32,000 nt of DNA from Thermofilum adornatum (GTDB taxonomy: Archaea > Thermoproteota > Thermoprotei > Thermofilales > Thermofilaceae): positions 630,001-662,000 of the forward strand of contig NC_022093.1 in assembly GCF_000446015.1 (NCBI RefSeq), read 5' to 3'. A program made the position numbers and the translations under genes. The notes below the pieces were generated by a model, which searched no databases, was not told the origin of the DNA, and saw nothing but the letters and a program-made list of their open reading frames with translations. Of this stretch, positions 12,496 to 30,456 are shown piece after piece (position 1 is the first letter of the stretch; every line of letters starts with the position of its first letter).

Positions 12496-12518
12496 CACAG
12501 TTAATTTTTATATACTTG

Positions 12519-15272: not shown

Positions 15273-16370
15273 TTACCCTCTAAGCATAAAACCATGCTCT
15301 GAGCTTACGTCTTTGCCTGTCTCTCTGTCTACTAGGCCTTTCGCCTCGGCAACTATTTGAGAGTATCTGGTGTTGTTCTCTAAGTACCTCCAGTAGTTTT
15401 CAGCCCTAACTGGTCCAGCCGGCGTAGTGTAGCTTATATCTAGCACGTACCACACGCCGTCTATCTTGACCTCTGGCAGGGCATGATCGTAGTCTATGAA
15501 TGCAACTACTCTAGCCTCGCAACCTAGGACATCTCTTAGCAGGGTAGTCAGCTCAATCGCGAAGTCCTCGCATGTGCCAGTATCGGCAATGGCTATAATG
15601 TCGTCACCTGGTATCATTAGCTGTCTAGGCTTTGGAACATTAACCCTATATGTGAACGTGAAACTTGCCCGCGTTGCTTTCGCAATGCTCCACGCGTTCT
15701 CCAAGGTGCATCGTGTCCCGTAAATGCTCTTCATCTCTTTTACTTTGACTGGATAAAGCCACTGCCCAAGAATCACCACTCCCGTGTAGGACACCAACAA
15801 TATGGATAACAGTAAAACAGTGACAAAGGTAGGTAAATCCCTTATATAGCGTCTAGCGAGACCCGCAAAGATGCCAGCAATGATAACTGGAACTAGATAA
15901 TTTACAGTGAAGACCAGGACTAGCACGCCCCCCTTATCAACAGACACAAAATAGGGACTGTGAAGCACCTCAAACGACACATACACAAAATTCGCGTAGA
16001 CCACGTACAAAGCAAACAAAACGACACCGAGAAAGAGACCCTCAGATATCAATAATAAAAAATCATGTAAAACTCGTAACCCTTGGATTATTTTACCAGC
16101 CAATTTCATGATTGAACCTGGAATCTTGAATTCTATTTTTTCCTTGATGATTACTCTACCAGCTATCTCTATAATTAAAATTAGAAGTGCAAGCATGAAA
16201 CTAAGAACAGCGAGCGGGCCCGCCTCTTTAAGGAAAAGATAAAACTGTATAATTGCCCCAAGAACAAAGACACTTAAGCTAACATGTTGCCACCGGACAA
16301 GCTCCATGCTCCTCTTACCGATTTTTGCTATCCTTGCAGAGACACCCTTGCAAAAAGCTTTACCAACCAT
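15273..16370 (-). CDS. Multi-pass membrane protein with C-terminal transglutaminase-like Cys-His-Asp domain
   Basis: The N-terminal ~200 aa are hydrophobic, with several predicted TM helices. The C-terminus has GTCEDFAIELTTLLRDVLGCEARVV ... DHALPEVKIDGVWYVLD, matching the transglutaminase-like core pattern (C ... H ... D). Confidence 0.65.
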   Translation of the reverse strand: MVGKAFCKGVSARIAKIGKRSMELVRWQHVSLSVFVLGAIIQFYLFLKEAGPLAVLSFMLALLILIIEIAGRVIIKEKIEFKIPGSIMKLAGKIIQGLRVLHDFLLLISEGLFLGVVLFALYVVYANFVYVSFEVLHSPYFVSVDKGGVLVLVFTVNYLVPVIIAGIFAGLARRYIRDLPTFVTVLLLSILLVSYTGVVILGQWLYPVKVKEMKSIYGTRCTLENAWSIAKATRASFTFTYRVNVPKPRQLMIPGDDIIAIADTGTCEDFAIELTTLLRDVLGCEARVVAFIDYDHALPEVKIDGVWYVLDISYTTPAGPVRAENYWRYLENNTRYSQIVAEAKGLVDRETGKDVSSEHGFMLRG

Positions 16371-16568
16371 TACCTTTCAACAGTATTAGTTTAAAGGATG
16401 ATCCTAAAAAGATAACCACAGGGATAATATTTGTAAGATAAAAGTATTACATTTGTGCCATCCCTAGCACATGTTCAAAACGCCTAACACAACTGACTGC
16501 ACCGCGCACCAAACACGGAACACACATACCTGACACTCATCGAAGCTCATCCAGAACAAAACAAAGAA

Positions 16569-17262
16569 GCAACAATTCTTTCTAAGTTGAACCAGGATAA
16601 ACAGGCATGGATACAGCTATAGGTTCCTCAGGTCACCTTACGCACTTTCAATTCTTTCTGAGTTGCATCAACAATTTCCGATTCATGCAACATTTAATGG
16701 ATACACCTTTCCTTCAATTCTTTCTGAGTTGCATCTGGCAACAATTAGAGAGATGGACAAGGCTGTTTCTAGAGGCCTTCAATTCTTTCTGAGTTGCATC
16801 TAAAAGGCTTCTGGCTCGGGGTGGCCGAGGGCCTGGCCCTCCTTCAATTCTTTCTGAGTTGCATCCCTAAGCGCCTTGGTCTCTATGGTCTGGGTTATCT
16901 TCGACCCTTCAATTCTTTCTGAGTTGCATCCGATATCGCTGACGCCTTGACGCTGAGGTTAGCGAAGAACCTTCAATTCTTTCTGAGTTGCATCCCGCGC
17001 AATAGGCATCGACCTAGAAAACGAGGGATACTCAAACCTTCAATTCTTTCTGAGTTGCATCTAAGCTGAGCGGTCTGGGCCGAGCCGAGAAGGTTACCCT
17101 GATCCTTCAATTCTTTCTGAGCCGCATCCTGGTCAGAGGGCGTTGACCTACCCGCCGACGCGGTGCTAGTAGCCTTTCAATTCTTTCTTAGTTGCATCAC
17201 AGTCCAGTTGCTCGGGAGCACCCCGCAGCTCGTTGCTCTTTCAATTCTTTCTTAGTTGCATC
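16569..17262 (-). CRISPR. CRISPR array 2: 11 repeats (same family as array 1), 10 spacers
   Basis: Repeat starts are 16569 (degenerate), 16645, 16711, 16776, 16841, 16906, 16970, 17037, 17104 (GAGCCGCATC variant), 17174 and 17238. The two leader-proximal repeats share the variant CTTTCAATTCTTTCTTAGTTGCATC. The leader lies on the right, so the functional strand is minus. Confidence 0.96.
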
Positions 17263-17506
17263 CGAGTTGTTTTACCGAGGAGGGGTTTATATGTTTAACG
17301 CTTTTTCCTGCAAGAAGCCAGCAAAACTGCCCTAGCACTCAAATTTACACATTGGAGGCTTCTGAAACTTCCCAATTGGGAAGCTTCTCGAAATACCCCG
17401 TTTTGGGTCGGGAAGTTTTCCCGTAATCTCTTTTCAAAATAACCTTCCCGTCGAGAAACTTCATAAACACCTTTTAGTCTTCCTTTAAGGAAAACATTGA
17501 CAAAAA
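17263..17506 (-). promoter_or_regulatory. CRISPR leader 2 (~244 bp)
   Basis: It is collinear with and highly similar to leader 1 (3479-3724), including the TTTATATG block about 25-30 nt from the first repeat. Confidence 0.8.
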
Positions 17507-17589
17507 GCGGCGTGCGTTTGCCATAAAAGGTGGTCGCAGTGAAGATTTTCCCTTTTTCCATGTTTTATGTATTCGGTAACTTTCTCTCG

Positions 17590-18250
17590 AGTCTGGCCGC
17601 TCGAGCCCGCACACGTGGGCGTGTGACCAGCGGCACTCGTCTCGGGCCCCCTGGGCAACATGCACCCCTCGGGGCCAAGTGTACACGCCGAGCACGAGGG
17701 ATGACCCCCAAGAGTAGTATGCTCGGCGTGGGTAGGGGGGACGCCTATGGCTAGGGGTGGGACCCGCAGAGGGCCGAGTAGCCTACAGTATGCAAGCCCG
17801 TCCGCCAAAAAACAAGTCTTTTTTTCTGGCCCCTTTCCACTTTTTCTTCCCCCCTTTCCCCGATCCGCCCCCACCCTCATATGGGTGGCGCCCCCACGAT
17901 AGGGGGCGGCTTCGATGCCTGGCCGTGTATGGGGGACCCTGCACGGCTTGGGCGATGAGGGTCGCGCCTCGCCACGGGAGACCCTGGCAGGCGCGGCTAG
18001 GGGAAGGGGGAAAGGGGCCAGCCAACGACAACCACTAACAGCCATAAACCACACAACCATACATCGCTTAACAAAGAATCTATGACATACATGAACCCAC
18101 GAAACCCACACTTCCTCTTATCCACCATTATTCGCTACCTCTCCTAACACGCAAAGAAGTGCCCGTCCCGCCGGTTCCCTGGGGCCTAGCGTGATCCATG
18201 CCTCCGCGCCCTAGCAGGGCGCCCCCGGAGCCAGGGATCCGGGGTGAGAG
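17590..18250. ncRNA. GC-rich, hairpin-dense region without credible ORFs; candidate structured RNA(s) of unknown class
   Basis: Many perfect local stems are visible: CTCGAG..CTCGAG (17587-17606), CACACG-TGGG-CGTGTG, GGCCCC..GGGGCC, GCCGAGCA..TGCTCGGC, CCGCCCCC..GGGGGCGG, CTGGCCCCTTTCC (17826) paired with GGAAAGGGGCCAG (18010), and GCGCCC-TAGCA-GGGCGC. A TATA-like TTTTATGT at 17563-17570 precedes the region, and a T7 run lies at 17817-17823. No rRNA, SRP or RNase P signature was recognised by eye. Confidence 0.3.
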
Positions 18251-18253
18251 GCT

Positions 18254-19528
18254 ATGGACATGGGGACGGCTAGCCCCGAGGGCTGGCGGACGGACCCCAC
18301 CGACCTCCTAGCAGAACTATACACCAGAGCCCAGCTAGCAAACAGGGAACTACACAGCCTAGTAAACGGACAGAAAAAATACTTCTACGAGTCGACTGAG
18401 ACCCTCATACACGGGCTAGGTCTCCCAGCAGACAAGGCAGACACATTGCGAGGCTTCACAGAAACACTAGCCAGCCTACTAGACATGGCATACCCGCAAG
18501 CAGAGACAAAGCTACAGAAACTATTGAAAGCCCTAGAAAACAGCAACGTCAAGGTAGAGCTGGGACCACGTGCCAAAAAGACGCTACACGTCATGCCAGA
18601 AGGGGAAAGGTGGTATGTCAGTGCACAGCTACGCAGAAAAACATGGCTATTCAAACTGCCAATCTACAGGGTGAGCGCCGACGCCGAGTTCCCAGAAATA
18701 CTAAACCTCTCCAGCCAGGACTTATACTACTTACAGGCAGGATGGCGAGCTAGCGATGAAAGTTGCGATCAGAACGAACCCCGAATGGGGACGACACAGC
18801 CATGGCAAGTACTTGCATGGGCAGTCGCGCGCTACGGCTATCTTCGGATATACCTCAGTTCTTTAAACCTAAACATGACTGAGCCAACATTCGCTTGGAC
18901 CATAACAAGCAAAAGCTGGGAACAACAGTGGCCCACCCGTGAAGGCAAAAAACAGGCACAGCAAGTAGCTAGCCAACACCCGCTCGGCATGCTGGCATGG
19001 TACCTCGGCGACGGCAGGAGACACAAATACGACCTAAGGTACAAAATTGGAAACGAAGAAAAATACGAGCCAAAAGACCTGGCACAGCAAATCCTGCAAG
19101 CCGCGTACCAGACAGGCTACGGAAAACTGCTAGACCTCCTAGAAAGCGAAAAATGGACAGCAATAAAACGACTACAGCCAAAACAGCACCCAGTATACGC
19201 AACCCTACAAGGCCACATCTTCTGGCTAAACTACTACGACGACAAACAAGTCCTACAGGCACGAGCCCTATTCAAAGACCCAGCCCAGGCACACAGACTG
19301 GCAAAAGCCCTAGCAGAAAACGGCATACAGGCACGGATAAACACGTGGAAAACCGGCTACCACATACTACAAATAACGGGACAAAACATACTAAAACTGG
19401 CGGAAAACAGCCCAGAATGGCGCATGGCATTAAAGCAACTGGCAGAAAAACACGGCCTACAGCCAAAAACACCAATGCTACGCAGGCTACTCGAGCTCGC
19501 GGAAAACCCACCCCAGCCAGAAACGTAA
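18254..19528 (+). CDS. Hypothetical protein (424 aa) with degenerate LAGLIDADG-like motifs
   Basis: This is the only long ORF here with non-repetitive composition. LAWYLGDGRRHKYDLRYKIG resembles a LAGLIDADG motif followed by a beta strand. YLQAGWRASDES could be a degenerate first motif. The assignment is weak. Confidence 0.55.
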   Translation: MDMGTASPEGWRTDPTDLLAELYTRAQLANRELHSLVNGQKKYFYESTETLIHGLGLPADKADTLRGFTETLASLLDMAYPQAETKLQKLLKALENSNVKVELGPRAKKTLHVMPEGERWYVSAQLRRKTWLFKLPIYRVSADAEFPEILNLSSQDLYYLQAGWRASDESCDQNEPRMGTTQPWQVLAWAVARYGYLRIYLSSLNLNMTEPTFAWTITSKSWEQQWPTREGKKQAQQVASQHPLGMLAWYLGDGRRHKYDLRYKIGNEEKYEPKDLAQQILQAAYQTGYGKLLDLLESEKWTAIKRLQPKQHPVYATLQGHIFWLNYYDDKQVLQARALFKDPAQAHRLAKALAENGIQARINTWKTGYHILQITGQNILKLAENSPEWRMALKQLAEKHGLQPKTPMLRRLLELAENPPQPET

Positions 19529-19535
19529 TTAGGAG

Positions 19536-19709
19536 GGGGCGTCACCCATTATACACCCATTTGAACCACCGTCCTCGGGGTTATGACTCGGGCCCACGCC
19601 ACAGGGCGCGGGTGCCCCGCGGGATACCTGGCTTCCCCACCGCGCGCTCGAGAGGGAAGCTGAATACCTTGGTCGCGCGGGGTGGACTTTCAGGGCGGGG
19701 TGACGCCCC
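19536..19709. ncRNA. Candidate structured RNA closed by a perfect 12-bp stem
   Basis: GGGGCGTCACCC (19536-19547) is perfectly complementary to GGGTGACGCCCC (19698-19709). Internal hairpins are CGCGGG-TGCC-CCGCG and CCGCGCG..CGCGCGG. The element is GC-rich in an intergenic position between convergent genes. Class and strand are unknown. Confidence 0.3.
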
Positions 19710-19749
19710 TGTTATTAGTATTATTGTGGGGTTTTTTATAAGTTTTTTG

Positions 19750-20793
19750 TTATTGGAGTGGTGAGAGTACTGGTGTGGGTCCGAATGGTCCTAGGTGGAT
19801 GTCTTGTCCTTCGTCTGCTGGGGCTAGGATGAGTCTTAGTCCTAGTGGTTTGTTTTTGGTTGTTTGTGTGTGGTGTAGGTCTGTGAGTATGTTGTGTATT
19901 ATGTTGTCTTGTGTTGTGTCTGGTATTGGGGCCATGTCTAGTCCTGGGACGCAGTATGTTGTGTATGCGGTTAGGTGGCTGAGTTTTAGTTGTTGTAGTC
20001 TTGCTAGTTCTTTGAGTCTGTTGTCTTCTGCTAGTGGTAGCATTGTTTCGTTGTAGCCTATTGTGGGGAGGTGTTTTGCTAGTTGTGTTAGTTGGTTGTT
20101 TATTTGTTTGATTGCTGTTATGGTGCCTGGTGCTGCTAGGGTTTGTCCTGAGTGTTTTTCGATTATTGTGGCTACGCTTTGGTCTTGCCATGGGCTTAGG
20201 GAGATGTCTATTCCTAGGAAGTTGTCGAGTGTTTGTTTTGCTGTTTGTGCTAGGGCTGTGAGTGTTTTTTGTAGTTGTTGTGGTGTTTGTGTGGTGTAGA
20301 GGGATGGGTATAGTAGGCTTATTGATGTTCCTGGTGTGAGTGTTGCTGTTGCTGGGAAGTATGGTGTCTGGACGAATTGTCCGTAGGTTACTGCGTATCT
20401 GGTGGCTGTGAGTGGGGATTGTTCTGAGAGTGTGCGGATTGTTTGGGCTAGTAGTTGTGTGTTTTGTGGTGTGTATAGTGTTGTTGTGTATAGTCTTGGG
20501 AGTGTGGCCATTGTGTCTGCTAGTTGTTTGGGGTGTAGTGGTTTGAGTTGTGGGACTGCTGTGTAGTTTATTTGGTATTTTTCTGCTAGTTCGTGTATTG
20601 TTTGTGCTGTTTTGTCGAATTTGTCTGGTGTTGTTGGTTTTGTTGTTAGGCGCTTGGTCCATATTTCTAGTTGTGTGTTTTTGGCTAGTTGTTCTGCTTG
20701 TTCGGCGAAGCGGGCGAGGAGGGTTTCTATTGTTTGTGGTGGCTGGTCTTGGTCGATGTGTATTGTTAGGGCTCTTATTTTGTGGCTAGTCAT
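19750..20793 (-). CDS. DUF711 / UPF0210-family protein with extreme T/Q/P-rich composition
   Basis: Family-like blocks are IRALTIHI (N-terminus), GYNETMLPLAEDNRL, YCVPGLDMAPIPDTT and KPLGLRLILAPADEGQDIHLGPFG. The start overlaps the upstream gene by 8 nt. The coding strand is about 80% A+C on sampled lines. Confidence 0.6.
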   Translation of the reverse strand: MTSHKIRALTIHIDQDQPPQTIETLLARFAEQAEQLAKNTQLEIWTKRLTTKPTTPDKFDKTAQTIHELAEKYQINYTAVPQLKPLHPKQLADTMATLPRLYTTTLYTPQNTQLLAQTIRTLSEQSPLTATRYAVTYGQFVQTPYFPATATLTPGTSISLLYPSLYTTQTPQQLQKTLTALAQTAKQTLDNFLGIDISLSPWQDQSVATIIEKHSGQTLAAPGTITAIKQINNQLTQLAKHLPTIGYNETMLPLAEDNRLKELARLQQLKLSHLTAYTTYCVPGLDMAPIPDTTQDNIIHNILTDLHHTQTTKNKPLGLRLILAPADEGQDIHLGPFGPTPVLSPLQ

Positions 20794-21922
20794 TGTTTTC
20801 GCCTGTGGTGTGTGTTTCTTGGAGGTGCTGTATGAGTGTGTCGAGGTCTTTGAATATCTTGGTTGTGTAGTATTCGAAGAATGGGCTTGCGGACTGGTGT
20901 GGGAAGATTGCGTATACGTGTTTGTTGTGGGTGTAGCCGTATTTTATTTCGCTTAGTACTCCTGGGGAGAGGACTGTTGTTGGGTAGTATACGACTATGA
21001 AGTCTGACTGGTTTATGAGCTGGTAGTCTCTGGCGACTATTTGGTCTTTTATGTCGTCTAGTGCCTCGTAGATTTGCTTGATTGGTAGCTGTACTGTCTG
21101 GGTGGCTGTGGGTATTTCTACTGTGTCTTTGCCGTTTTTTTCGGCCTCGTATGCCATGTCTACTAGTATGGAGTCTTCTATCGAGATTGGGTCGAATACT
21201 ACTATTCCTGCTTGTTTTAGGCGTTGTTTGACTTCGTCTTTTTGTTTCATGAATTCGGGGTCTCCTTTTACGTGTGTGATTGGGTAGCTTAGGTAGGCTT
21301 TTGGGGCTGGTTTTTGGCCTGTTTTCTTTGCTCGTTCGACGTCGTAGAGTATTTTTTGGAGCATTTGTGGGTCTTCGTGTCTGGGGAATACGTAGTATGG
21401 TTTTCTCTGGTATTCTGCTAGTAGTCTTGTTATGAAGGCTTCTTCGTCGCGCCATACGAGTATTTCTTTGAGTGTTAGTTTTCCCCGCCAGGCGTTTGAG
21501 GAGGCGAGTGCGGCGTAGATGTAGTGGGCGTTGTCGATTATGTTTATGTAGACGTCTGGGGAGAGCATGTTTACGTAGTGGAAGTTGAAGGCGTGGAGTA
21601 GGTGTTTTTTCCAGCGGAAGCATACGTGTGTGCTTATTGCGGCTACTTGTCCTTTTTGTCTGGTTTTTTCGACTTCTTTTAGTATGTCTTCGAATGTGGC
21701 GGCGCGGAGGTATTCGAGTGCTAGTGGGTCCATGTCGAGGATTTTTCCGTCTGGGATTTCTACTCCTAGTTCGCGGGATTTCTGGTACATGTTTGTGCCT
21801 ACGTCTATTATGTTTAGGTCGGGGGCTGTGGTTGTGAGCTGTTTTAGTAGGTCGTATCTGCCGCTTCCGCTTATGCCTGTTACGAATGCTACTAGGTCTC
21901 GACTATTCACGTGGGGATTCAC
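20786..21922 (-). CDS. Hypothetical two-domain protein (378 aa), with a P-loop-like N-terminal kinase/NTPase fold
   Basis: The N-terminal VAFVTGISGSGRYDLLKQL is a glycine-rich loop with R in place of the Walker lysine. The C-terminal half is unassigned. Amino-acid composition is normal, but codons end almost exclusively in A or C. It appears co-transcribed with the DUF711 gene. Confidence 0.6.
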   Translation of the reverse strand: MNPHVNSRDLVAFVTGISGSGRYDLLKQLTTTAPDLNIIDVGTNMYQKSRELGVEIPDGKILDMDPLALEYLRAATFEDILKEVEKTRQKGQVAAISTHVCFRWKKHLLHAFNFHYVNMLSPDVYINIIDNAHYIYAALASSNAWRGKLTLKEILVWRDEEAFITRLLAEYQRKPYYVFPRHEDPQMLQKILYDVERAKKTGQKPAPKAYLSYPITHVKGDPEFMKQKDEVKQRLKQAGIVVFDPISIEDSILVDMAYEAEKNGKDTVEIPTATQTVQLPIKQIYEALDDIKDQIVARDYQLINQSDFIVVYYPTTVLSPGVLSEIKYGYTHNKHVYAIFPHQSASPFFEYYTTKIFKDLDTLIQHLQETHTTGENND

Positions 21923-22082
21923 GTGGCTCGGAATAAAAATTTAGCTCTTTCAGTTGTCTTCGGATCCGTGTTTCAAGTTTCCTCGTGGTAGTGGGGAGGC
22001 TTGTTAACGTAAATTATCGAGGCCTTTTCTTAGCTGTGTCTATTCGAGAGAACTTGGAAAGCAGTGGTTTTTAGAGTAGCAA

Positions 22083-22196
22083 GCTTCAATTCCTTCTGAG
22101 CTGCATCGTGATCATTTGCCGGGAGTTTACCGTGGCCTAAATTTAAAAATAATCTTCCTATCGAGAAGCTTCATAAATAAGTTTTGGTCTTCCTGC
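22083..22196 (-). repeat. Decayed third CRISPR locus: one degenerate repeat plus a truncated leader remnant
   Basis: GCTTCAATTCCTTCTGAGCTGCATC (22083-22107) has 3 mismatches to the consensus repeat. 22122-22196 (GAGTTTACCGTGGCCTAAATTTAAAAATAATCTTCCTATCGAGAAGCTTCATAAATAAGTTTTGGTCTTCC) aligns with the distal half of leaders 1 and 2. The proximal ~150 bp, including the TATA block, is missing. Confidence 0.75.
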
Positions 22197-22299
22197 TTAT
22201 GTATATAAATTATTTATTGTTTAGCGCGCGGCTAAGTGATACTAATCTTTTTTGTTTGTAGCTTTTTATGTATGTTGAAGGGGTTTGCTGGTGGATGGG

Positions 22300-24330
22300 T
22301 TAGGTTTGTAGTGTTTTTAGGATTTTTTCTCCGTCGCCTGTGAGTTTGTAGCCTATGAGTGGTTTTCCGCCTTCGTAGAGGAGGGATGGGACTATTAGTC
22401 TTTTCCCGCTGAGTTCGCTTATTGCTCTGCTGAATAGTTCTTTGGGTAGGTTGACGAAGTTGAAGAGGGATTCGTGGTCTGTTTCGCCGCCCATTGTTGC
22501 GATTGCTCTGAGTATGGTTATTCCTTCTGGGCTTATTCCGACTGTGAGCTGTGGTGGTGTTGGTGGCTGTGGGGCTGGCTGGGCTGGGGGCGGTGTGGCT
22601 ATTCTTGGCGCCGGGTTTATGGTTGTGTCTGTCGTTGGCCGGGGTTCTGGTAGTCTCGCGATTGGCCTGGCGATTTCTGGGGGCTTGGCTACTTCTACTG
22701 TTATTGTGGGCTTTATTTTGACGGGCTGTGGCATTGCGCCCATTTCTGTGAGTTCTTTTTCTGCTTGTTCGTAGACTTGTTCTGGGTAGATGTAGTACCT
22801 GTTGATCACGGTGAATACGTCTTTGACTTCGAAGACTTTTTTGAGTCTTAGCCATTCTAGGACGGCTCGCCTGCGCTCTATCTCGGCGTATAGTTCTTCT
22901 ATTTTCTTTCCGGTCTTCTCGGCGAGGAAGCGTATGTGGTAGCTTTCAGACATTATGACGTGTTTGTCTCTGACTGGGTCCCATCTGACTATTTCCCTGT
23001 ATTTCTCGTAGTCTTCGACTTCCCATATGTGTTTGACTCTTCTTGCGAACTTGCCGTCTGGGAGGAGGGTTCTCTCGCTGAGGAGGGCGATGTTAAGCGA
23101 GGGTATGTAGGTTGGGGAGACGTTCATTGGGGGGCTTGTGAGCCTTTTTACTGCCCTGTCGAGGGAGTCGGCGTGCATTGTAGACATGCCTCCGTGGCCG
23201 GTCGACATTGCTTGGAATAGTACGAAGGCTTCTTCTCCCCTGACCTCGCCGACGATGATGTAGTCTGGCCTGTACCTGAGTGAGACCCTGACTAGGTCGT
23301 AGAGTGAGATTTCTCCGACCTTGGATTCGCCTAGTCCGTAGCTTTCCCTGCTTACGAGCTGGACCCAGTTCTCGTGTGGGAGGTTTAGCTCTGGTGTTTC
23401 CTCTATTGTTACTATTTTGAAGCCTGGCTTGAAGAAGTTGGCGATTGCGTTTAGGAGGGTGGTTTTTCCTGCGGCTGTTGCCCCTATGACCATTGCGGTC
23501 ATCCTGTTCTCGACCATTAGCCAGAGGTATGCGGCGCTCCAGGAGTCGAGGTTTCCAGAGTTGACCATCTCGACTATCGACATTGGCTTTTCTCTGAACT
23601 TTCTGATGGTGAATGTGCTTCCGCGTGGCGAGACTTCTTCTCCGTAGGTTGCCGCCAGCCTGTGCCTGCCTGGGAGCATTGCGTCTACTATCGGGAACGC
23701 GGCCGAGATGTGTTTTCCAGACATGTGTGCCAGCTTGACGATGAATTCTCTCAGGTAGTCCCTGCTCCTGAAGATTATGTTTGTGGGTATGCTTTCGTAG
23801 TCGCGGTGCCACACGTGGATTGCTCGGTCTACGCCGTCACAGCTGATGTCTTCCAGCTTGTAGTCGCGTATGAGTACTTCTATTGGGCCGTAGCCTACGA
23901 GGTCCCTCTCGATGTAGTAGATTACTTTTTGCCAGCTTTCTTTTGAGAGGCCCCTGGCGACGCTCCTGTACTTCTCTGCGAGGCGCCTGGCCTCGGAGAT
24001 TATGTGTTGTCTGAGTTCTAGGTCGAAGGATACCGGGGGCTCGAGCTCGACGCTTAGTATGTCTATGAGTTTTTCGAGGGCTTTTTGCTCTGTCTTTGTG
24101 AGCTGTACTTCTTCTACGAAGTATGCGCGCTGGTTTCCGGCCTCGGGTATCTCGACTATTTTTACCTTTGCAAAGGGCTCTACTACCCAGTATTCGTCTA
24201 TGACCCTATATGTGTCCTGTACTGGGAGTAGAACTACTTTCTCTTCTTCTTTTGAAGCTTCTGCTGCCTTCTTTTTCTCTTTTGATCCTTTTTTCACGTT
24301 TTTTTCTTTCTCTTTAACTTTTGTTGACAA
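22300..24330 (-). CDS. Type II/IV secretion-family ATPase (FlaI/ArlI/VirB11-like) with Pro-rich linker and C-terminal wHTH-like domain
   Basis: Motifs are Walker A VIGATAAGKTTLLNAI, IVTIEETPEL, Walker B region RYRPDYIIVGEVRGEEAF, and the His box STGHGGMSTMHA. After about residue 520 comes a proline-rich tract (PPPAQPAPQPPTPPQ). This is followed by about 90 aa (ILRAIATMGG...LIGYKLTGDGEKIL) that look like a winged helix. Confidence 0.85.
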   Translation of the reverse strand: MSTKVKEKEKNVKKGSKEKKKAAEASKEEEKVVLLPVQDTYRVIDEYWVVEPFAKVKIVEIPEAGNQRAYFVEEVQLTKTEQKALEKLIDILSVELEPPVSFDLELRQHIISEARRLAEKYRSVARGLSKESWQKVIYYIERDLVGYGPIEVLIRDYKLEDISCDGVDRAIHVWHRDYESIPTNIIFRSRDYLREFIVKLAHMSGKHISAAFPIVDAMLPGRHRLAATYGEEVSPRGSTFTIRKFREKPMSIVEMVNSGNLDSWSAAYLWLMVENRMTAMVIGATAAGKTTLLNAIANFFKPGFKIVTIEETPELNLPHENWVQLVSRESYGLGESKVGEISLYDLVRVSLRYRPDYIIVGEVRGEEAFVLFQAMSTGHGGMSTMHADSLDRAVKRLTSPPMNVSPTYIPSLNIALLSERTLLPDGKFARRVKHIWEVEDYEKYREIVRWDPVRDKHVIMSESYHIRFLAEKTGKKIEELYAEIERRRAVLEWLRLKKVFEVKDVFTVINRYYIYPEQVYEQAEKELTEMGAMPQPVKIKPTITVEVAKPPEIARPIARLPEPRPTTDTTINPAPRIATPPPAQPAPQPPTPPQLTVGISPEGITILRAIATMGGETDHESLFNFVNLPKELFSRAISELSGKRLIVPSLLYEGGKPLIGYKLTGDGEKILKTLQT

Positions 24331-24496
24331 TTTATCCTCCCTTAATGTTTATCCTTGAAGATAATAGTAAAGCCATAGTTTTAAATGGGTTTCGCAGTTC
24401 TAACTTGGCTGAATAGCAAAGATGCAGAGGATAGAATGTTTAGCTTTGGAACGCTGGGGCTCGAAAACTCAATAAACAGGTTTTTGTATTGTTAAT

Positions 24497-24555
24497 GGGC
24501 GATGGTGAGCCTTGCGAGGTCTGAATTTGTGAGGAGTCGAACCTCGCTGAGCCTC
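24497..24555 (+). ncRNA. Weak C/D-box sRNA-like candidate
   Basis: The layout is ATGGTGA (C-like, 24502-24508), a 12-nt spacer, CTGA (D', 24521-24524), GTGAGGA (C'-like, 24529-24535), an 11-nt spacer and CTGA (D, 24547-24550), flanked by GGC/GCC. Both C boxes deviate from RUGAUGA, and the two guide regions are mutually complementary (CGAGGT/ACCTCG). It may therefore be only a hairpin. Confidence 0.2.
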
Positions 24556-25408
24556 ATGGCTTTTCTGCGAGTATCCCGTATTCCCTTATTATTTTCTTGA
24601 CTTGGAAGCCTGCGCGTCTGAGTCTTTCTGCTACTCCTTTCTGGAAGCTGACTCCCCTGTGTTTGCCTGGGGCCCCTGTGTAGTGGAAAAGTGTTCCCCC
24701 TCTCTCTAGAACCCTGTATATCTCCCTGTAGAATTCTTCGCTGTAGAGTTGTCCTGCGAATGCAAATACTGGTGGGTCGTGCAGTATCTTTGTAAAGGCC
24801 TCGTCCGGCAGTTGCTTGATTATTTGGGCCGCGTCGCCTAGTAGGATCTTTATGTTGGTTAGGGCTTTCGAGTACGGGTTGTGTTCCGCTATTTTTAGGA
24901 CGTTTATGTCTTTCTCTATTGTTGTTACTTCTGCGCCACGGCTGTGGGATTGTATGGCCGTGTAGCCAAGGCCCGTACAGATGTCCAATACAGTGTCGCC
25001 TCTTTGGACCCCCAAGAGCTTTACTTTTAGGCGTGCATCGTCTAGAGGGGTTGTCCCAGAGATGTTGTGCATGTGTACCCCGTTTATCTCTAGTGTTGGG
25101 GCTGTCTTCTCGCCTAGGTACTTCAGCTTGTAGTAGTTACTATCCCTGAGCTCAACTAGGTAGACGCCTTCCGGGCCAAGATACAGGAACCTGTCGCTGT
25201 CGACGATGCGTCTTAAAATGTTCTCCTCAATTGTATAAGAGTTGTTCTCAAGGCTGATAACGTATCCTTCGCCGGTTTTTTCCGCAACGGCAGAGTCGAG
25301 CCCTACGTTTACCGGGACCTCTCCTTTCCCTTTTAGCCCTAAAAGCCTAGTGGCTGTGTAGGGGCTCAGAAGGATGCCTTGGACGGGTTTAAACGTGTAT
25401 TCCTGCAT
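24554..25408 (-). CDS. Class I SAM-dependent methyltransferase (DPPx-type, probably RNA or N-methylase)
   Basis: The SAM-binding motif is VLDICTGLGYTAIQ, and HDPPVF is a catalytic-type motif. It has an N-terminal extra domain. Substrate cannot be determined from the sequence. Confidence 0.7.
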   Translation of the reverse strand: MQEYTFKPVQGILLSPYTATRLLGLKGKGEVPVNVGLDSAVAEKTGEGYVISLENNSYTIEENILRRIVDSDRFLYLGPEGVYLVELRDSNYYKLKYLGEKTAPTLEINGVHMHNISGTTPLDDARLKVKLLGVQRGDTVLDICTGLGYTAIQSHSRGAEVTTIEKDINVLKIAEHNPYSKALTNIKILLGDAAQIIKQLPDEAFTKILHDPPVFAFAGQLYSEEFYREIYRVLERGGTLFHYTGAPGKHRGVSFQKGVAERLRRAGFQVKKIIREYGILAEKP

Positions 25409-25455
25409 GGTTGGCGCTTCCCAGAGTGAAACATATAGGCTATGTTAATAAATAG

Positions 25456-25547
25456 TGGGCCCGCCGGGATTCGAACCCGGGACCACCGCCGCTCCTAGGA
25501 AATTGTGCCTTGTAAGGGCGGCATCCTAACCACTAGACTACGGGCCC
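25456..25547 (-). tRNA. tRNA-Val: tRNA-Val (anticodon UAC) with ~19-nt intron in the anticodon loop region; no encoded CCA
   Basis: The minus strand reads GGGCCCG TA GTCT AGTGGTTA GGAT G CCGCC CTTACA [AGGCACAATTTCCTAGGAG] C GGCGG TGGTC CCGGG TTCGAAT CCCGG CGGGCCC A. All four stems pair. The intron lies at or next to the canonical 37/38 position. Confidence 0.85.
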
Positions 25548-25708
25548 TGGAGGTCGGTATTTAGAGGGGCCTTGTGTGGTAATAAATTTTTCTTTGCATA
25601 GTTTTTCTTTTGTATAAGCAGGTTTCTGATGGCGCTGGTAGTTCTAAGGACGCCTGGCGTCTAGCAATATTGTAAAAGTTTAAAAGATGTTTTGGTGGTT
25701 TGCTGTGT

Positions 25709-26593
25709 ATGTCTTTCAGGGAACTTTACATGCATCATGTGTCGCCGACTCTTTTCGGCGTGAATGGCGACTATGATTCTGCAAGGATTGTAGTGATGGG
25801 TATTCCCTTTGACTCCGCCGCAACAGGTGTGCCTGGTGCACGTTATGCCCCTAGGAGGATTAGGGAGGTCTCAGTGGAGCTTGAGACTTTTCACCCTGCA
25901 ACAGGCCTCGACGTCGAGTTTGCCAACGTGTTTGACGCGGGCGACTTGCCGCTGGTTACCTGTGTGGATTCACTGGTTAGGGTTGTGGGCAGAGTTGTCG
26001 AGGAGGTTTATGACTCCGGGAAGAGAATTATTTCTCTTGGCGGGGATCACTTTGTGTCGTACCCTGTCATCTCCACTGTGGCGAGGAAGACCGGCAGGCT
26101 AGGTGTGCTTGTGTTTGATGCTCACATGGATCTGCGTGACGAGTACCCGTTCGACTGCAGGTACAGCCATGCGACCGTGTTCAGGAGGCTACTGGAGGAG
26201 AACTCAAACATCGAGGTTGCGTATTTTAGGCCTAGGGGCTGGAGCAAGGAGGAGTATCTCTACGCTAAGGAGACTAAAAGGGTTCAGGTCCTCGGGGACG
26301 AGGCAGAGGTGGATGACTGGTTTAGGAGGGCCGAGAATGTATATGTGACAATTGATATAGATGCTGTAGACCCCTCGTTTGCCCCCGGGACGGGGACACC
26401 TGAGCCATTTGGATTGCATCCTGATACTGTACGGAAGATAATAGAGGAGACATTCCCGAGGTATTCCCAGAAGATAAGGGGCCTGGACATCGTCGAGGTT
26501 AACCCGCTTGTTGACGTCAATGATGTGACTTCTAGGCTGGCGGCTAAACTATTGATGTATGCCTTGGTGGGCCTGCTCCCATATTTGGGATAG
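25709..26593 (+). CDS. speB: Agmatinase / ureohydrolase family protein
   Basis: Mn-binding ureohydrolase motifs are SLGGDHFVSYPV, VFDAHMDLRD and TIDIDAVDPSFAPGTGTPEP. The ORF is open from a TTG at 25700; the first ATG is at 25709. Confidence 0.85.
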   Translation: MSFRELYMHHVSPTLFGVNGDYDSARIVVMGIPFDSAATGVPGARYAPRRIREVSVELETFHPATGLDVEFANVFDAGDLPLVTCVDSLVRVVGRVVEEVYDSGKRIISLGGDHFVSYPVISTVARKTGRLGVLVFDAHMDLRDEYPFDCRYSHATVFRRLLEENSNIEVAYFRPRGWSKEEYLYAKETKRVQVLGDEAEVDDWFRRAENVYVTIDIDAVDPSFAPGTGTPEPFGLHPDTVRKIIEETFPRYSQKIRGLDIVEVNPLVDVNDVTSRLAAKLLMYALVGLLPYLG

Positions 26594-26636
26594 TAAAGTT
26601 TTTAACGACAAGCTGGGGATTCTTGGCTGATTATTT

Positions 26637-26810: not shown

Positions 26811-26893
26811 CGAGACCTGCCATTCTAGGAGAGAAACAATGAGTAAAGTTTATATTGCGGCATGTTCATGTGTTTCTTAGCGTACGGGAGAAA

Positions 26894-27181
26894 ATGAGCG
26901 CGGAGTTGCTAGATAATATATTAAAGGGCGTCTTCAAAGAGCAACAAGTTATCAAGATACGTGTAGAGAAAAGAAAAGGTCACAGAGAAGTTACCATTAT
27001 TCAGGGCTTAGACCTCAAAGACCCCAACCTCAAGAAGCTTGTGTCCGAAATGAAGGCAAAGTTTGCGTGCGGCGGGACAATAAAGGACGACCACGTGGAG
27101 CTTCAGGGAGAGCATCGCTACAAGGTTAAAGAGTTCCTTGTGGCCAATGGTTTTCCAGAGAGCAACATAATTGTAGAGTAG
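26894..27181 (+). CDS. Translation initiation factor aSUI1 (eIF1 homologue)
   Basis: IKIRVEKRKGHREVTIIQGL and KFACGGTIKDDHVELQGEH are typical SUI1 blocks. The ORF is open from 26855; the Met at 26894 gives the usual ~95 aa. Confidence 0.85.
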   Translation: MSAELLDNILKGVFKEQQVIKIRVEKRKGHREVTIIQGLDLKDPNLKKLVSEMKAKFACGGTIKDDHVELQGEHRYKVKEFLVANGFPESNIIVE

Positions 27182-27251
27182 GGACCTGTTTCCCGAATAT
27201 TAAAAAGAAAACTTTTTTTATCTTAAATTTAAAAATAATTGGTGAATTTAC

Positions 27252-27710
27252 ATGAGTATTGATGCAAATAGTGTTGCCTCTGAGCTTGCCGAGGTTATCG
27301 CAAAAATACAAAAAGAACTGAACGATACTCTGCGCGAAATTTGGGCTAGACACTCTTCTCTCTATCCAGAGAAGCTGAGAATGATGGATCCCCTCTACGA
27401 CATTGAGGATAGAGGAGACTCGATAGCTGTCTATGTCGACGTGCCTGGGTTCAGAAAAAACGAGATAAAGATTAGGGTCACGGAGGACGCAGTGGAGGTT
27501 ATTGCTCAAAAGAACGAGGAAAGAGTAAAGGAGGAAGAATCAAGGAAATATCTCCATCGCCAAAGGCTTTACAAGCAAATTTACAAAAAGATTACTCTTC
27601 CGACAAAAGTTAGACCGGAGCTGGCTAAGGCTAGGTTTGAAGACGGGGTTCTAATAGTAGTTGTTCCCAAGAGTGGTGCCGAAAGAGAGGTCGAAGTAAA
27701 AGTAGAATAA
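27252..27710 (+). CDS. hsp20: Small heat-shock protein (Hsp20/alpha-crystallin family)
   Basis: Alpha-crystallin domain blocks are YVDVPGFRKNEIKIRVTEDAVEVIAQ and ARFEDGVLIVVVPK. Confidence 0.85.
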   Translation: MSIDANSVASELAEVIAKIQKELNDTLREIWARHSSLYPEKLRMMDPLYDIEDRGDSIAVYVDVPGFRKNEIKIRVTEDAVEVIAQKNEERVKEEESRKYLHRQRLYKQIYKKITLPTKVRPELAKARFEDGVLIVVVPKSGAEREVEVKVE

Positions 27711-27728
27711 ATCAATAGGTAAAAAGGT

Positions 27729-28937
27729 ATGCATGCCAGCAGGCCAATTATTAGGGAAGTTGTTAGAGACCTCTATGTTCTACGAATAGATGACCACGAG
27801 ACAAAGTTCTTTGAGGGCTTATGGGAGATACCAGAGGGCATCTCCTACAACGCATACCTCTTGAAGACTGGTGAGGGAGCCGTTCTCTTCGATGGATGGA
27901 AAAAGACATATGCTGATCTGTTAGTCGAGGAGATAGAGAAACTTGTAGACCTTCGCGATATAAAGTATGTCGTTGTTCACCACATGGAGCCTGATCACAG
28001 CGGCAGTATTCCGGCCTTGATGGCACGTGCGACCAACGCCGTTCTGCTTGGACACCCGTTGGCTGGAAAGATGATTTCAAACTTTTATGGTGCATACAAG
28101 TTTAAGCCGGTCAGTGACGGCGAAGAATTGAAGATAGGCGAACACAGCTTGAGATTTATCCATGCTCCATGGCTTCACTGGCCGGAAACAATCTTCACCC
28201 ATATAGTGAACCTAAACGTTCTTTTGACATGTGACGCTTTCGGCTCATATTCTTTGCCCCCAGTTTTTGACAGCGAAGTTGAAGACTGGAACCAGCTGGA
28301 TGTTGCAATTAGGAAATACTATGTAAACGTTATTGGAAAATATTCACAAAACGTATTAAAGGCTTTAGAGAAGCTTAAAAGCCTCCAAGTGTCCCCTTCC
28401 ATAATTGCACCCTCCCATGGAGCGATCTTTAGAGACAAGCCTGCACACATACTGGACAAGTATATTGAAATTGCACAGGGAGTTCCAAAAGAGAACAAGG
28501 CGGTAGTCGCCTACGTGTCCATGTATGGCTTTGTTGAACAAATGATCGACGCAGCCGTTTCACTACTGAGGGAGAAAGGCTTCAATGTGAAGATTTACAG
28601 GTTTACCGACAACCATAGGGATAATGTTTCAGACCTGCTTGGAGACCTTTCCGACGCTGGTCTAATGGTCATCGGTGGGGGCACGTATGAGGCTGGTGTC
28701 CAGCCATTGCTAGGCTACATTCTACACCTCATAGCGTCCAAACTAGGCTATAGGGCTGGCAATCTACCAGTTCTTGTGTTGACGAGCTATGGCTGGGGAC
28801 CCGTTGCGGGAAAAATGGTATTAGAAGAATTAAAGAACAAAGGTTTTACACGTATCGAAAATGTCGAAGCAACTGGGCAGGTACGCCGGGAACACGTAGA
28901 GAAAATCAGGCAGGCCATTGAAAAGCTGACCTCGTAA
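27729..28937 (+). CDS. Flavodiiron protein (FprA-like: metallo-beta-lactamase fold plus flavodoxin-like domain)
   Basis: The di-iron ligand motif is VVHHMEPDHSG (H-x-E-x-D-H). The C-terminal ~140 aa have a flavodoxin-like layout (VVAYVSMYG...). Confidence 0.8.
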   Translation: MHASRPIIREVVRDLYVLRIDDHETKFFEGLWEIPEGISYNAYLLKTGEGAVLFDGWKKTYADLLVEEIEKLVDLRDIKYVVVHHMEPDHSGSIPALMARATNAVLLGHPLAGKMISNFYGAYKFKPVSDGEELKIGEHSLRFIHAPWLHWPETIFTHIVNLNVLLTCDAFGSYSLPPVFDSEVEDWNQLDVAIRKYYVNVIGKYSQNVLKALEKLKSLQVSPSIIAPSHGAIFRDKPAHILDKYIEIAQGVPKENKAVVAYVSMYGFVEQMIDAAVSLLREKGFNVKIYRFTDNHRDNVSDLLGDLSDAGLMVIGGGTYEAGVQPLLGYILHLIASKLGYRAGNLPVLVLTSYGWGPVAGKMVLEELKNKGFTRIENVEATGQVRREHVEKIRQAIEKLTS

Positions 28938-28970
28938 ATCGTCATCATGTTTTTATTCGGATAGCTAGTT

Positions 28971-30278: not shown

Positions 30279-30456
30279 CCCTCTCGGATAAAACCTGATT
30301 CCCTGGCTACTTTTTTCAGTTCACCGGTTCCCATGAGAAAATTACAATTGATTTTTAATTAAGGAACCTTGAAGAACTTCCTCATTTTCCTTGAATTTTT
30401 TGATTTTTCACTTGAGTATAGATAAGCTTTTATATGTCAACTCGCGAATCAAATTT

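Follow-up and report, generated by a model that had tools for sequence, protein, structure and literature searches.

The window analyzed here is a 32,000-nt stretch of the Thermofilum adornatum chromosome (NC_022093.1, positions 630,001 to 662,000; coordinates below count from its first letter). Its plus strand changes abruptly from A+C-rich to G+T-rich, and we find that this switch coincides exactly with a gene for initiator tRNA-Met(CAU) (tRNA-iMet), circularly permuted, that was not recognized in a preliminary description of the window. That the skew is strand-specific, mutational, anchored on this tRNA gene and specific to a clade is well supported. It is a lineage-specific and apparently still active transition bias of the DNA strand, and a second skew is anchored on the module formed by array 1 of clustered regularly interspaced short palindromic repeats (CRISPR) and its leader. 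The skew is neither a gene-orientation effect, nor codon selection, nor the mark of a canonical origin with origin recognition boxes (ORBs) and Orc1.

Size and shape of the skew

The preliminary description placed the switch at 19.53-19.74 kb, and analysis of fourfold-degenerate sites indicates that it is real and more pronounced than was claimed. Plus-strand G+T is 0.369 across 18040-19530 and 0.680 across 19736-24330, and the spot values given earlier were reproduced exactly (0.367 at 19081-19140, 0.800 at 20281-20340 and 0.500 at 29101-29160). Measured against 63 unskewed 500-nt windows (mean G+T 0.494, standard deviation 0.038), the 500-nt windows at 19001, 20001 and 20501 have z-scores of -4.5, +7.6 and +7.1, and the extremes in single 500-nt windows are a GC skew of +0.56 and an AT skew of -0.57. 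To the right of 19.74 kb, plus-strand G+T at fourfold sites is 96-100% over 2.2 kb, stays near 0.90 up to 24.4 kb and regains baseline near 26.8 kb; to the left of 19.53 kb it is 0.18-0.30. G or T occupies 344 of 349 fourfold sites (P = 4e-95 under p = 0.5). The genes on the two sides of the switch, with their fourfold plus-strand G+T, are as follows.

18254-19528, plus strand: gene for a 424-aa protein, 0.22 (third-position T 0.00-0.08)
19750-25408, genes on the minus strand: right domain with G+T-rich plus strand, comprising the next four genes
19750-20793, minus strand: DUF711 gene (Pfam match), 0.99
20786-21922, minus strand: kinase/NDT-like gene (Pfam match), 0.98
22300-24330, minus strand: T2SSE ATPase gene (Pfam match), 0.90
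24554-25408, minus strand: methyltransferase gene (Pfam match), 0.68
25700-26593, plus strand: agmatinase gene, 0.59 (A/(A+G) 0.09)
26855-30864, plus strand: five genes to the right of agmatinase, 0.31-0.57

The 424-aa gene makes up the bulk of the left domain, in which the plus strand is A+C-rich. On the coding strand of DUF711, fourfold sites consist of A (0.72), C (0.27), G (0.00) and T (0.01). Loss of A from the plus strand is near saturation out to about 25.2 kb, with third-position G/(G+A) of at least 0.8, and the ratio is 0.69-0.83 within agmatinase and down to 0.56 at 26.8 kb. Loss of C falls steadily with distance, from 0.98 to about 0.5 by 25-26 kb. The A+C-rich blocks noted previously at 1-2330 and 4950-5640 were also confirmed (G+T 0.379 and 0.313). 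In all, the skew changes sign four times within 20 kb and regains baseline within 1-7 kb, and another 9 kb on the right carry no skew, so that there is no constant sign across the replichore. Unpolarized raw divergence per kb is not raised in the skewed block, which is thus not a simple hypermutation zone.

The skewed composition also yields long spurious open reading frames (ORFs) of 207-308 aa in alternative frames of the skewed genes, at 18997-19764, 19736-20662, 20790-21623, 22232-22855 and 23093-23812. Their peptides are of low complexity and rich in T, N, R, K and P, and gene callers and ORF lists over-predict in this region.

A permuted initiator tRNA gene at the switch

Two features occupy the switch itself.

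19536-19709, minus strand: circularly permuted initiator tRNA-Met(CAU) gene, identified from its consensus fold, compensatory changes and ARAGORN
19732-19741, minus strand: TATA box TTATAAAAAA, preceded by an A-rich run AACAAAAAAC, conserved across the window-like (class B) loci described below

The gene is organized as a 3' half (TCCACC, acceptor strand, ACCA), a variable spacer and a 5' half that extends up to the T-loop. The 3' half, with its encoded CCA, lies at 19686-19670, the spacer at 19669-19647 and the 5' half at 19646-19614 and 19586-19560, around an extra intron at 19613-19587. The 3' half therefore precedes the 5' half on the same strand and behind one promoter, as expected of a permuted gene. 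The whole precursor is enclosed by a 12-13-bp terminal helix with arms at 19709-19697 and 19547-19536, which shows compensatory changes and is predicted to bring positions 59 and 60 together in a bulge-helix-bulge type of structure. The shortest of four aligned homologs has a perfect anticodon arm (CGGGG-CTCATAA-CCCCG), and the rejoined sequence is called tRNA-Met(CAT) by ARAGORN in the window and in L019, L021, L046 and L051 (related loci and contigs are denoted here by L and a number). No sequence at the switch is AT-rich except the TATA box region, about 25 nt upstream of the precursor. In most strains the gene is followed by T-runs. The 180-nt GC-rich element at the switch has no Rfam match at the gathering score or at E<=1. 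Motif-based ideas that it encodes RNase P RNA, signal recognition particle RNA or an H/ACA RNA were considered and dropped; comparison of the four homologs showed the permuted tRNA.

A permuted tRNA-iMet(CAU) gene with the 3' half first, a 59/60 junction, an encoded CCA and a single promoter is known from Thermofilum pendens (Chan, Cozen and Lowe 2011, PMC3218864). The two genes differ in the spacer (23 nt in the window, 7 nt in T. pendens), in the intron (after position 32 in the window, at 37/38 in T. pendens) and in the first acceptor pair (C1:G72 versus A1:U72). Also, unlike the window copy, T. pendens-like copies have no flanking skew. The C1:G72 pair replaces the A1:U72 pair typical of initiators and is accompanied by a G5>C/C68>G swap in the acceptor stem; the window copy also has the 23-nt spacer and a 27-nt anticodon-loop intron that L019, L027 and L030 lack. 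The acceptor end of this initiator tRNA is evolving unusually fast in the window lineage.

The skew belongs to the DNA strand

The sign of the skew reverses within a single gene near the left end of the window.

3781-5605, minus strand: HerA-like ATPase gene with an internal skew sign flip (Pfam DUF87/AAA and PADLOC mad8 matches)

From its 3' to its 5' end, this gene (3781-5580) has plus-strand fourfold G+T of 0.94, 0.79, 0.64, 0.29 and 0.15, and the skewed block stops abruptly at 5605, where an unskewed island starts. Gly and Val each make up 14% of the N-terminal 200 residues of the protein, which lack Asn and Gln, and each make up 7% of the C-terminal part. The 5' part of the gene is equally skewed in L021; a lookup of the exact protein product found no record of it in other assemblies.

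Genes of both orientations share one strand skew in several relatives. In L033, a plus-strand ankyrin gene co-directional with the tRNA gene (0.72) is followed by a convergent, minus-strand homolog of the 424-aa gene (0.88), and in L046/L048 the skew is shared by one gene on the minus strand (0.91) and one on the plus strand (0.79). L054 has a series of plus-strand genes with G+T-rich coding strands. A 4.8-kb domain at 1-4800 of L057 has coding A+C of 0.27 and 0.35 in its plus-strand genes and 0.85 and 0.70 in its minus-strand genes; it holds HTH-CBS, DUF4143, aminotransferase and first pyruvate-oxidoreductase subunit genes with a tRNA-Met inside, and its sharp end falls beyond the contig start. 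In L061, which has no islands on the left side, the A+C-rich plus strand runs through minus-strand core genes including Pcc1 (coding A+C 0.24-0.29) and ends before KaiC (0.46). Untranslated flanks are skewed like silent sites, with G+T of 0.07 at 2304-2332.

The agmatinase gene is the sole plus-strand gene of the right domain, and its coding strand is G+T-rich and depleted of A. It was earlier presented as an exception to A+C-rich coding strands. Compared to the five plus-strand genes that follow on the right, the difference is significant, both in fourfold G+T (87/148 versus 232/547, P = 6e-4) and in G-ending twofold codons (53/58 versus 180/327, P = 3e-8), and fourfold G+T is similar in L009 (0.61) and L019 (0.65). 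It is weaker evidence than was claimed, and we treat it as supporting only, because the gene has a local skew maximum of its own.

Two alternatives, selection acting on codons or on the composition of mRNA and a pure gene-orientation effect with coding strands that are A+C-rich throughout, could be read from the A+C-rich coding strands of six of the eight skewed window genes and from the coding A+C of L24e and S28e (0.79 and 0.69). NNC and NNA codons pair with G34 and U34 tRNAs, which would also favor such selection. Coding strands are not always A+C-rich, however, the outcome that the preliminary description had named as fatal to its own reading: strongly G+T-rich coding strands (fourfold A+C 0.20-0.41) occur in no fewer than 11 genes or parts of genes. 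The sign reverses within the HerA-like gene, non-coding flanks are skewed to the same degree, codon positions 1 and 2 and amino-acid content are shifted as well, and the ribosomal-protein and proteasome genes of L058 are unbiased. Translational selection should also be confined to coding sequence and have the same sign at similar expression, whereas the skew flips within a gene, extends into flanks and takes opposite signs in different genes. On the strength of the intragenic flip and the domains of mixed orientation we reject these explanations, and their probability is close to negligible. The earlier proposal of a strand-specific mutational pressure in place of translational selection is thus upheld by the intragenic flip, genes of both orientations, skewed flanks and shifted amino acids. 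Transitions are involved, as is seen at the twofold sites of DUF711 (C/(C+T) = 1.00, A/(A+G) = 0.96).

The tRNA gene as anchor across lineages

Metagenomes were scanned for the permuted tRNA junction, which gave 33 loci. G+T on the sense strand of the tRNA gene differs among them as follows.

T. pendens-like loci (GC 0.55-0.69), various neighbors: 0.40-0.56 upstream, 0.40-0.56 downstream
Class B, window-like (DUF711 operon upstream, variable downstream): 0.20-0.29 upstream, 0.60-0.71 downstream
Class C (L046/L048): fourfold values of 0.09-0.33 upstream, 0.79-0.91 downstream

The neighbors in class C are peroxiredoxin and TnpB-like genes upstream and MBL-fold and OB-like genes downstream. As the same switch is present in classes B and C, it travels with the tRNA gene and not with neighbors or their orientation. 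Two causes suggested earlier are not supported by this comparison. The convergent gene pair at the switch is not required, since L019, L033 and L045 have a co-directional gene after the tRNA and the switch persists; nor is a rearrangement breakpoint, since L046/L048 keep the switch with different genes on both flanks.

Assembly or library artefacts were considered and rejected, given identical independent contigs, many diverged strains and a pattern specific to codon position. Contigs from two independent read sets (Logan assemblies) are 100% identical across the switch, and more than 20 contigs from JGI, ENA and NCBI repeat the pattern with natural divergence. Strain variants at 97-98% identity keep it, and the L019 lineage (76% nucleotide and 82-84% protein identity) is also skewed; the gradient of the right domain is found in both L009 and L019. 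In T. pendens the orthologous T2SSE-kinase-DUF711 operon is unskewed (fourfold coding A+C 0.45-0.53), as is a Thermofilum metagenome-assembled genome (MAG) with a 72% identical ATPase.

That the locus was pieced together as a mosaic from foreign or rearranged DNA, with flanks that are mobile-element segments of intrinsic skew joined at a breakpoint, could be suspected from the left flank, which is strain-variable and rich in defense islands, from the multi-copy 424-aa family with remnants adjoining other tRNA genes, and from the many contigs that break at the switch. But the right domain consists of syntenic core genes, with an operon common to T. pendens, and has a smooth gradient; the flip within the HerA-like gene is gradual; the demonstrably recent insertions (defense island, spacers and a leader remnant) are the unskewed parts; and the same skew lies on different flanking genes in L046, L045 and L054. 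Core-gene synteny, the gradual flip, unskewed recent insertions and differing flanks largely refute the mosaic, which we consider highly improbable.

The 424-aa protein has no Pfam or PADLOC match. It has a 99% identical homolog in the single-contig, 1.75-Mb Thermofilum MAG GCA_038872975.1 and a 73% identical paralog, TCARB_0030, in the cultured T. adornatum 1505, and its multi-copy family (80 homologs) is confined to Thermofilum-like assemblies. Copies or 3'-end remnants (TTTTCCGCGAGCTCGAGTAGCC) directly adjoin four different tRNA genes; these copies or remnants lie at 18254-19528 of the window, about 2840-2900 of L058, 9689-9714 of L057 and 10001-11299 of L066. The gene is possibly a tRNA-targeting mobile element, and a LAWYLGDG motif in its product has a faint likeness to LAGLIDADG.

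Some 20 metagenome contigs from the skewed clade, independent of one another, stop within roughly 500 nt of the tRNA-iMet gene (L010, L011, L019, L027-L034, L037-L040, L044, L045, L048, L050, L053 and L054), while T. pendens-like contigs continue through it. Strain-variable flanks or poor assembly of two-letter-like sequence may be the cause.

CRISPR array 1 and other tRNA genes

At a distance of 16 kb from tRNA-iMet, the window has another switch, with the polarity unchanged. The features that bear on it are the following.

62-2332, plus strand: cas3 helicase gene (62-1555), cas3 HD gene (1539-2303) and a 29-nt 3' flank (Pfam, PADLOC)
2333-3478, minus strand: CRISPR array 1, 18 repeats, CRISPR RNA (crRNA) sense on the minus strand; pooled spacers unskewed (G+T 0.49)
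3479-3780, minus strand: array 1 leader, homologous in sequence to leader 2, unskewed (G+T 0.48)
16560-17560, minus strand: CRISPR array 2 (16560-17262) and its leader (17263-17560), both unskewed
25455-25547, minus strand: intron-containing tRNA-Val(TAC) gene, with no visible break in the skew profile

Array 1 and its leader (2333-3780) are bracketed by the switch, with A+C-rich sequence beyond the trailer and G+T-rich sequence (0.94) beyond the leader. Toward the trailer, plus-strand fourfold G+T of the cas3 region goes from 0.34-0.42 to 0.17 and then 0.07, the last two values in cas3 HD. The distal end of leader 1 carries a promoter-like AAAAACTTAT on the plus strand. The plus strand is weakly A+C-rich beyond the trailer of array 2 (16001-16559), and this trailer-side effect is repeated in L021, L030, L037, L038 and L061. 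The crRNA-sense strand is G+T-rich for 0.4-1.5 kb past array trailers in the window, L021, L030, L037 and L038. Spacers, leaders and the defense island described below are unskewed, which fits young or constrained sequence.

Ordinary tRNA genes show a weaker form of the switch. Mean G+T in the clade (n=11) is 0.40 just upstream and 0.54 just downstream, compared to 0.49 and 0.51 in T. pendens-like relatives. At tRNA-Arg(GCG) of the cultured T. adornatum 1505 it goes from 0.34 to 0.69, and the downstream genes reach 0.84-0.88. The effect is uneven among tRNAs.

The two leaders are homologs of about 300 nt with a TATA box GGTTTATATG roughly 30 nt from the first repeat. Their arrays lie within 15 kb of each other and flank a defense-island hotspot, with the split cas3 (helicase, HD) beside array 1. 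Self-targeting spacers that bring Cas3 to the switch were considered because the geometry would suit a 3'-5' helicase-nuclease, and the idea was rejected as only chance matches of 12-15 nt were found in the window and related loci.

Mutational path and protein drift

The proteins of the right domain have drifted with the skew. Identity to T. pendens drops as the skew rises, from 81% for T2SSE to 74% for the kinase and 49% for DUF711; against the equally skewed L019, all three are 82-84% identical. The commonest replacements (A>T, V>I, V>T, V>A, F>L, E>K and R>K) correspond to G>A and T>C on the coding strand.

Third-position polymorphisms were polarized among five strains with L019 as the outgroup, in an alignment of the window with L009, L010, L011, L021 and L019 that compared 19750-24330 (skewed) with 26855-30278 (control). 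Plus-strand changes per site were as follows.

C>T: 0.085 in skewed genes, 0.037 in control genes
T>C: 0.028 in skewed genes, 0.037 in control genes
A>G: 0.133 (2/15) in skewed genes, 0.049 in control genes
G>A: 0.018 (10/559) in skewed genes, 0.067 in control genes

The pattern in the control region is symmetric. From the rates in the skewed genes, equilibria follow that are close to the composition actually seen. This points to a steady state that is being maintained, and the bias is apparently still operating. It counts against this part of our interpretation that the numbers are small (two A>G events), that the outgroup is only 76% identical, and that the raw forward and back counts of 15 versus 28 fit a stationary state without proving an active process. 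Third-position G<->T transversions number about 25 in the skewed genes and 1 in the control genes; the excess hints at an additional type of damage to the exposed strand, such as oxidized guanine, or only at the persistence of G and T there.

Replication origins and fork barriers

A plus strand that turns from A+C-rich to G+T-rich has the polarity expected at a replication origin, as was pointed out in the preliminary description, and this polarity is present. Archaeal origins have repeated ORB or mini-ORB elements flanking an unwinding site (PMC4010727), and we applied the criteria given there. Dedicated searches confirmed the earlier impression that ORB repeats and an orc1/cdc6 gene are absent, and the canonical form of an origin is not supported, with no ORB repeats, AT-rich unwinding element or initiator gene. 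A repeat search of 19200-20100 found nothing besides coding low-complexity sequence and the tRNA terminal helix, and TCCANNGGAAAC at one mismatch has one match elsewhere, compared to 2.3 expected, although ORB sequences differ between lineages. There is no AT-rich unwinding element, as the GC-rich tRNA fills the intergenic region and the only AT-rich stretch is the 38-nt promoter at 19713-19750. In a tblastn search with Thermofilum Orc1, neither the window nor any of the loci of classes B and C gave a match (within 12-14 kb).

Origin-related genes do lie in the wider neighborhood. L058, a member of the L019-like lineage, extends the synteny on the right of the window (MCM, GINS, S28e and L7Ae at 74% identity) and carries orc1 and a GPN GTPase gene about 30 kb right of tRNA-iMet; the orc1 locus of this lineage has no comparable skew switch. 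In a sister lineage (L024, L047, L051 and L052), orc1/cdc6 (Pfam Cdc6_C, Cdc6_lid and AAA) lies only about 330 nt from tRNA-iMet, and this locus is unskewed. The order there is GPN-GTPase, permuted tRNA-iMet, an intron-bearing class II tRNA and orc1/cdc6 (pattern +280 to +1600). In the L019-like lineage, orc1 and GPN-GTPase are convergent neighbors, and in T. pendens a class II tRNA likewise comes after DUF711. From the sequences compared, these gene orders look like traces of rearrangement around an ancestral origin region.

A true chromosomal origin at or beside tRNA-iMet, with the lagging-strand template exposed on each side and the initiator gene since moved, would account for the polarity of the switch. 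The orc1/cdc6 gene beside this tRNA in the sister lineage keeps the idea alive, as do genes for MCM, GINS and primase at a distance of 10-20 kb on the right and the orc1 gene of the L019-like lineage. We nevertheless regard it as improbable. The sequence elements and initiator gene of an origin are missing, as described above, the skew fades within 1-7 kb rather than spanning a replichore, a second switch lies 16 kb off at CRISPR array 1 with weak switches at ordinary tRNAs, and the orc1 loci of the sister and L019-like lineages have no switch of their own.

Also to be considered is a site of fork convergence, where forks stall at the transcribed tRNA/CRISPR cluster and the leading-strand template is exposed on each side, the helicase outrunning a polymerase stalled at template uracil or hypoxanthine. 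Archaeal family-B polymerases do stall at these template bases. The geometry fits if the exposed strand is the leading-strand template, as the plus strand would be at 19.7-26.7 kb for leftward forks from an orc1 gene about 30 kb to the right. However, fork direction and arrest would have to be assumed here, similar barriers would be required at several loci, and tRNA-Val is not a center, and we take a barrier to be decidedly improbable.

Transcription and strand displacement

In every domain, the G+T-rich strand is sharpest and most extreme at its own 5' end, by the anchor, and fades toward its 3' end. Under deamination, this geometry fits any process that strips away the strand leaving the anchor 5' to 3' or postpones its copying: synthesis from the anchor (at an origin, primed by R-loops, or through restart or break induction), outward transcription or 3'-5' resection. 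A fork-convergence barrier fits equally if it is the leading-strand template, and not the lagging-strand one, that is exposed. We rejected a double-strand break resected 5'-3' from the switch, as its polarity would be opposite under deamination; the gene of the 424-aa protein, a candidate for making such a break, is also absent from several skewed loci.

Transcription-associated mutagenesis alone would require that the very strong tRNA-iMet and CRISPR promoters fire both ways, from a TATA box that is symmetric, and that transcription runs past the terminators, so that the outward non-template strand is deaminated. In its favor, the strongest transcription units are the ones that serve as anchors, and the polarity is right on both sides. 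In Pyrococcus furiosus, one TATA box is documented to transcribe bidirectionally, with the antisense start about 50 nt upstream (PMC6640164). Non-template enrichment in G+T is seen downstream of tRNA and CRISPR units: in the crRNA-sense stretches past array trailers, in KsgA downstream of two tRNAs (coding A+C 0.31) and in the L061 Pcc1 operon downstream of array 2, the latter two sense-transcribed with G+T-rich coding strands. Also, domain ends fall in intergenic spacers, and the promoter-like element at the distal end of leader 1 heads the domain at 3781-4800.

The 7-kb domain, in contrast, would need an antisense transcript. The outward (plus) strand of 19750-25700 contains 31 runs of five or more T, 10 of them of six or more; antisense RNA would have to cross them all to reach 25.7 kb, yet fourfold G+T is still 0.90 at a distance of 2.5-4.6 kb. 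Terminator-like runs of T5-T7 directly follow the stop codons of several unskewed genes, and those in the domain resemble these normal terminators of the organism. The GTGGGG upstream of the TATA box on the antisense side is not like a transcription factor B recognition element. The spacer of the tRNA gene and the trailer-end spacers, which would be the most transcribed unconstrained sequence, are unskewed. Ribosomal-protein and proteasome genes have no coding-strand excess of G+T; with exosome genes, their fourfold coding A+C is 0.41-0.59 (high expression inferred from gene identity). Thus, we accept read-through and divergent transcription for short ranges and doubt that transcription explains the main 7-kb domain; as the sole cause throughout it is possible but unlikely.

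Our preferred reading, held tentatively and at somewhat less than even chance, is that DNA synthesis starting or restarting at RNA genes under heavy transcription displaces a strand, and that transcription adds to the effect over short ranges; this source of single-stranded DNA is inferred. On the strand running 5' to 3' outward from an anchor, A is lost to near saturation (A>G) and C to a degree that falls off with distance (C>T). Selection purges most mutations that change amino acids, so that silent sites saturate and protein composition drifts. In our reading, the domains record that the outward-running strands were recurrently single-stranded in an organism whose growth temperature is near 85 C, at which adenine and cytosine of single-stranded DNA deaminate fast, the exposure leading to the deamination. 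DNA synthesis could start or restart at the heavily transcribed stable-RNA genes, either primed by R-loops or through fork restart after a transcription-replication conflict, and might displace the outward strand, or leave it unreplicated, over kilobases in a manner akin to the mitochondrial D-loop. Read-through and divergent transcription probably add to this over the first few hundred bases. A more far-reaching form, in which tRNA-iMet and CRISPR loci of T. adornatum-like archaea are frequent origin-independent synthesis sites, primed by R-loops or through recombination or restart, that displace kilobases of outward strand as a chromosomal D-loop, seems to us rather unlikely.

Several points weigh against strand displacement. 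The start or restart of synthesis is deduced wholly from composition. The distal ends of domains lie in intergenic spacers (agmatinase/SUI1 in the window, Pcc1/KaiC in L061), and such ends look more like transcription-unit boundaries than like stochastic replication tracts. Heavy transcription alone is insufficient, because tRNA-Val inside the right domain has no effect of its own. Finally, the assignment of the exposed strand assumes deamination; alkylation-type G>A and T>C changes would invert the geometry.

Comparison with known strand asymmetries

The skew shares with the asymmetry of vertebrate mitochondria a one-strand C>T and A>G bias that is graded from a fixed start and shapes both silent sites and amino acids. 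In vertebrate mitochondria, the gradient follows single-stranded time in strand-displacement replication, and tRNA genes or structures are found at start points. The Thermofilum case differs in belonging to a cellular chromosome, with two back-to-back domains on opposite strands of 1-7 kb each, and in having A>G saturated and C>T graded, the reverse of mitochondria. The replication-associated GC or keto skew of prokaryotes (chirochores) has the same switch polarity and is likewise attributed to presumed deamination of the more exposed strand. Its amplitude is far exceeded in the window (GC skew 0.56, AT skew -0.57, fourfold sites 99% G+T), where the range is kilobases and not a replichore, several switches occur within 16 kb and there are no origin features.

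Transcription-associated mutagenesis, including the gradient of somatic hypermutation, also has an active promoter as its anchor and resembles the window in the decay over about 1-2 kb at most anchors and in a G+T-rich non-template strand downstream of tRNA and CRISPR units. Unlike these, the main 7-kb domain is antisense to its operon and passes through 31 terminator-like T-runs, ordinary highly expressed genes are unaffected, and no deaminase enzyme is implicated. Kataegis and break-induced replication share strand-coordinated, deamination-type changes, a strand switch at a fixed point, and the polarity of nascent or displaced strands from synthesis leaving a center. APOBEC enzymes or alkylation give rise to the mutation clusters of yeast and cancer, each of which is a single somatic event. 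The Thermofilum skew is instead an evolutionary steady state under selection, with A>G as well as C>T, and its polarity is opposite to that of simple 5'-3' resection at a break. We found no account of comparable local, saturating skew domains in the literature on Thermofilum and hyperthermophiles. While strand asymmetry driven by deamination is known, its kilobase-scale, gene-anchored and sign-flipping form in a cellular chromosome appears to be new.

Other features of the window

The remaining features of the window are given below.

5606-14749, minus strand: strain-variable, unskewed, low-GC stretch (fourfold G+T 0.43-0.53)
7049-14749, minus strand: class 2 defense island system associated with restriction-modification (DISARM), with DrmC, DrmB and DrmA (7049-11779) and DrmMII (13517-14749) (PADLOC)
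17560-18040, no strand assigned: conserved GC-rich structured block of about 460 nt, unskewed (seven homologs, 87-93% identity, 135 predicted pairs)
21923-22299, no strand assigned: intergenic insertion with an orphan CRISPR repeat (22083-22107) and a leader remnant, weakly skewed (G+T 0.62)

L021 and L060 have other genes in place of the stretch at 5606-14749, and L061 lacks it. The DISARM system of this stretch is complete, with near-perfect PADLOC scores, and lies in a 35% GC island together with an EndoIII-like gene (12826-13527). DrmMII is a C5-cytosine methylase, and a 5-methylcytosine methylase is notable in a hyperthermophile. The block at 17560-18040, which adjoins the leader of array 2, has about 62% GC in a 45% GC genome and varies mostly in loops; homologs are found in L021, L027, L030, L033, L038 and L044, and it has no Rfam match at E<=1. 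From its predicted pairing it is possibly an undescribed large structured RNA. Between the T2SSE and kinase genes, an orphan CRISPR repeat AGCTTCAATTCCTTCTGAGCTGCATC is followed by a leader-like remnant (22083-22200). As the spacer between these genes is 377 nt in the window and 19 nt in L019, the operon gained a CRISPR leader-repeat unit.

Meaning of the skew domains

In conclusion, the strand asymmetry of cellular chromosomes is usually weak and replichore-wide, while here it is local (1-7 kb), saturating and seated on identifiable genes, strong enough to flip within a gene and to leave one protein 49% identical to its ortholog beside operon neighbors at 74-81%. Skewed regions of this kind distort phylogenies, measures of codon usage and skew-based predictors of origins, and metagenome assemblies often break at the tRNA-iMet locus. 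Experiments are possible because a related pattern is found at tRNA-Arg in the cultured T. adornatum 1505 (complete genome, CP007493.1).

If single-strandedness is the cause, the domains mark sites of a hyperthermophile chromosome that are repeatedly unwound, possibly by R-loops, restart, cryptic initiation or antisense transcription, and how far A>G and C>T are saturated in relation to each other would indicate how well hypoxanthine on the one hand and uracil on the other are dealt with. Were frequent synthesis from these loci to be true, heat-driven deamination would have rewritten every silent site and half the residues of neighboring proteins, and the skew "comets" would provide a map, readable from sequence alone, of initiation and restart sites in uncultured hyperthermophiles.

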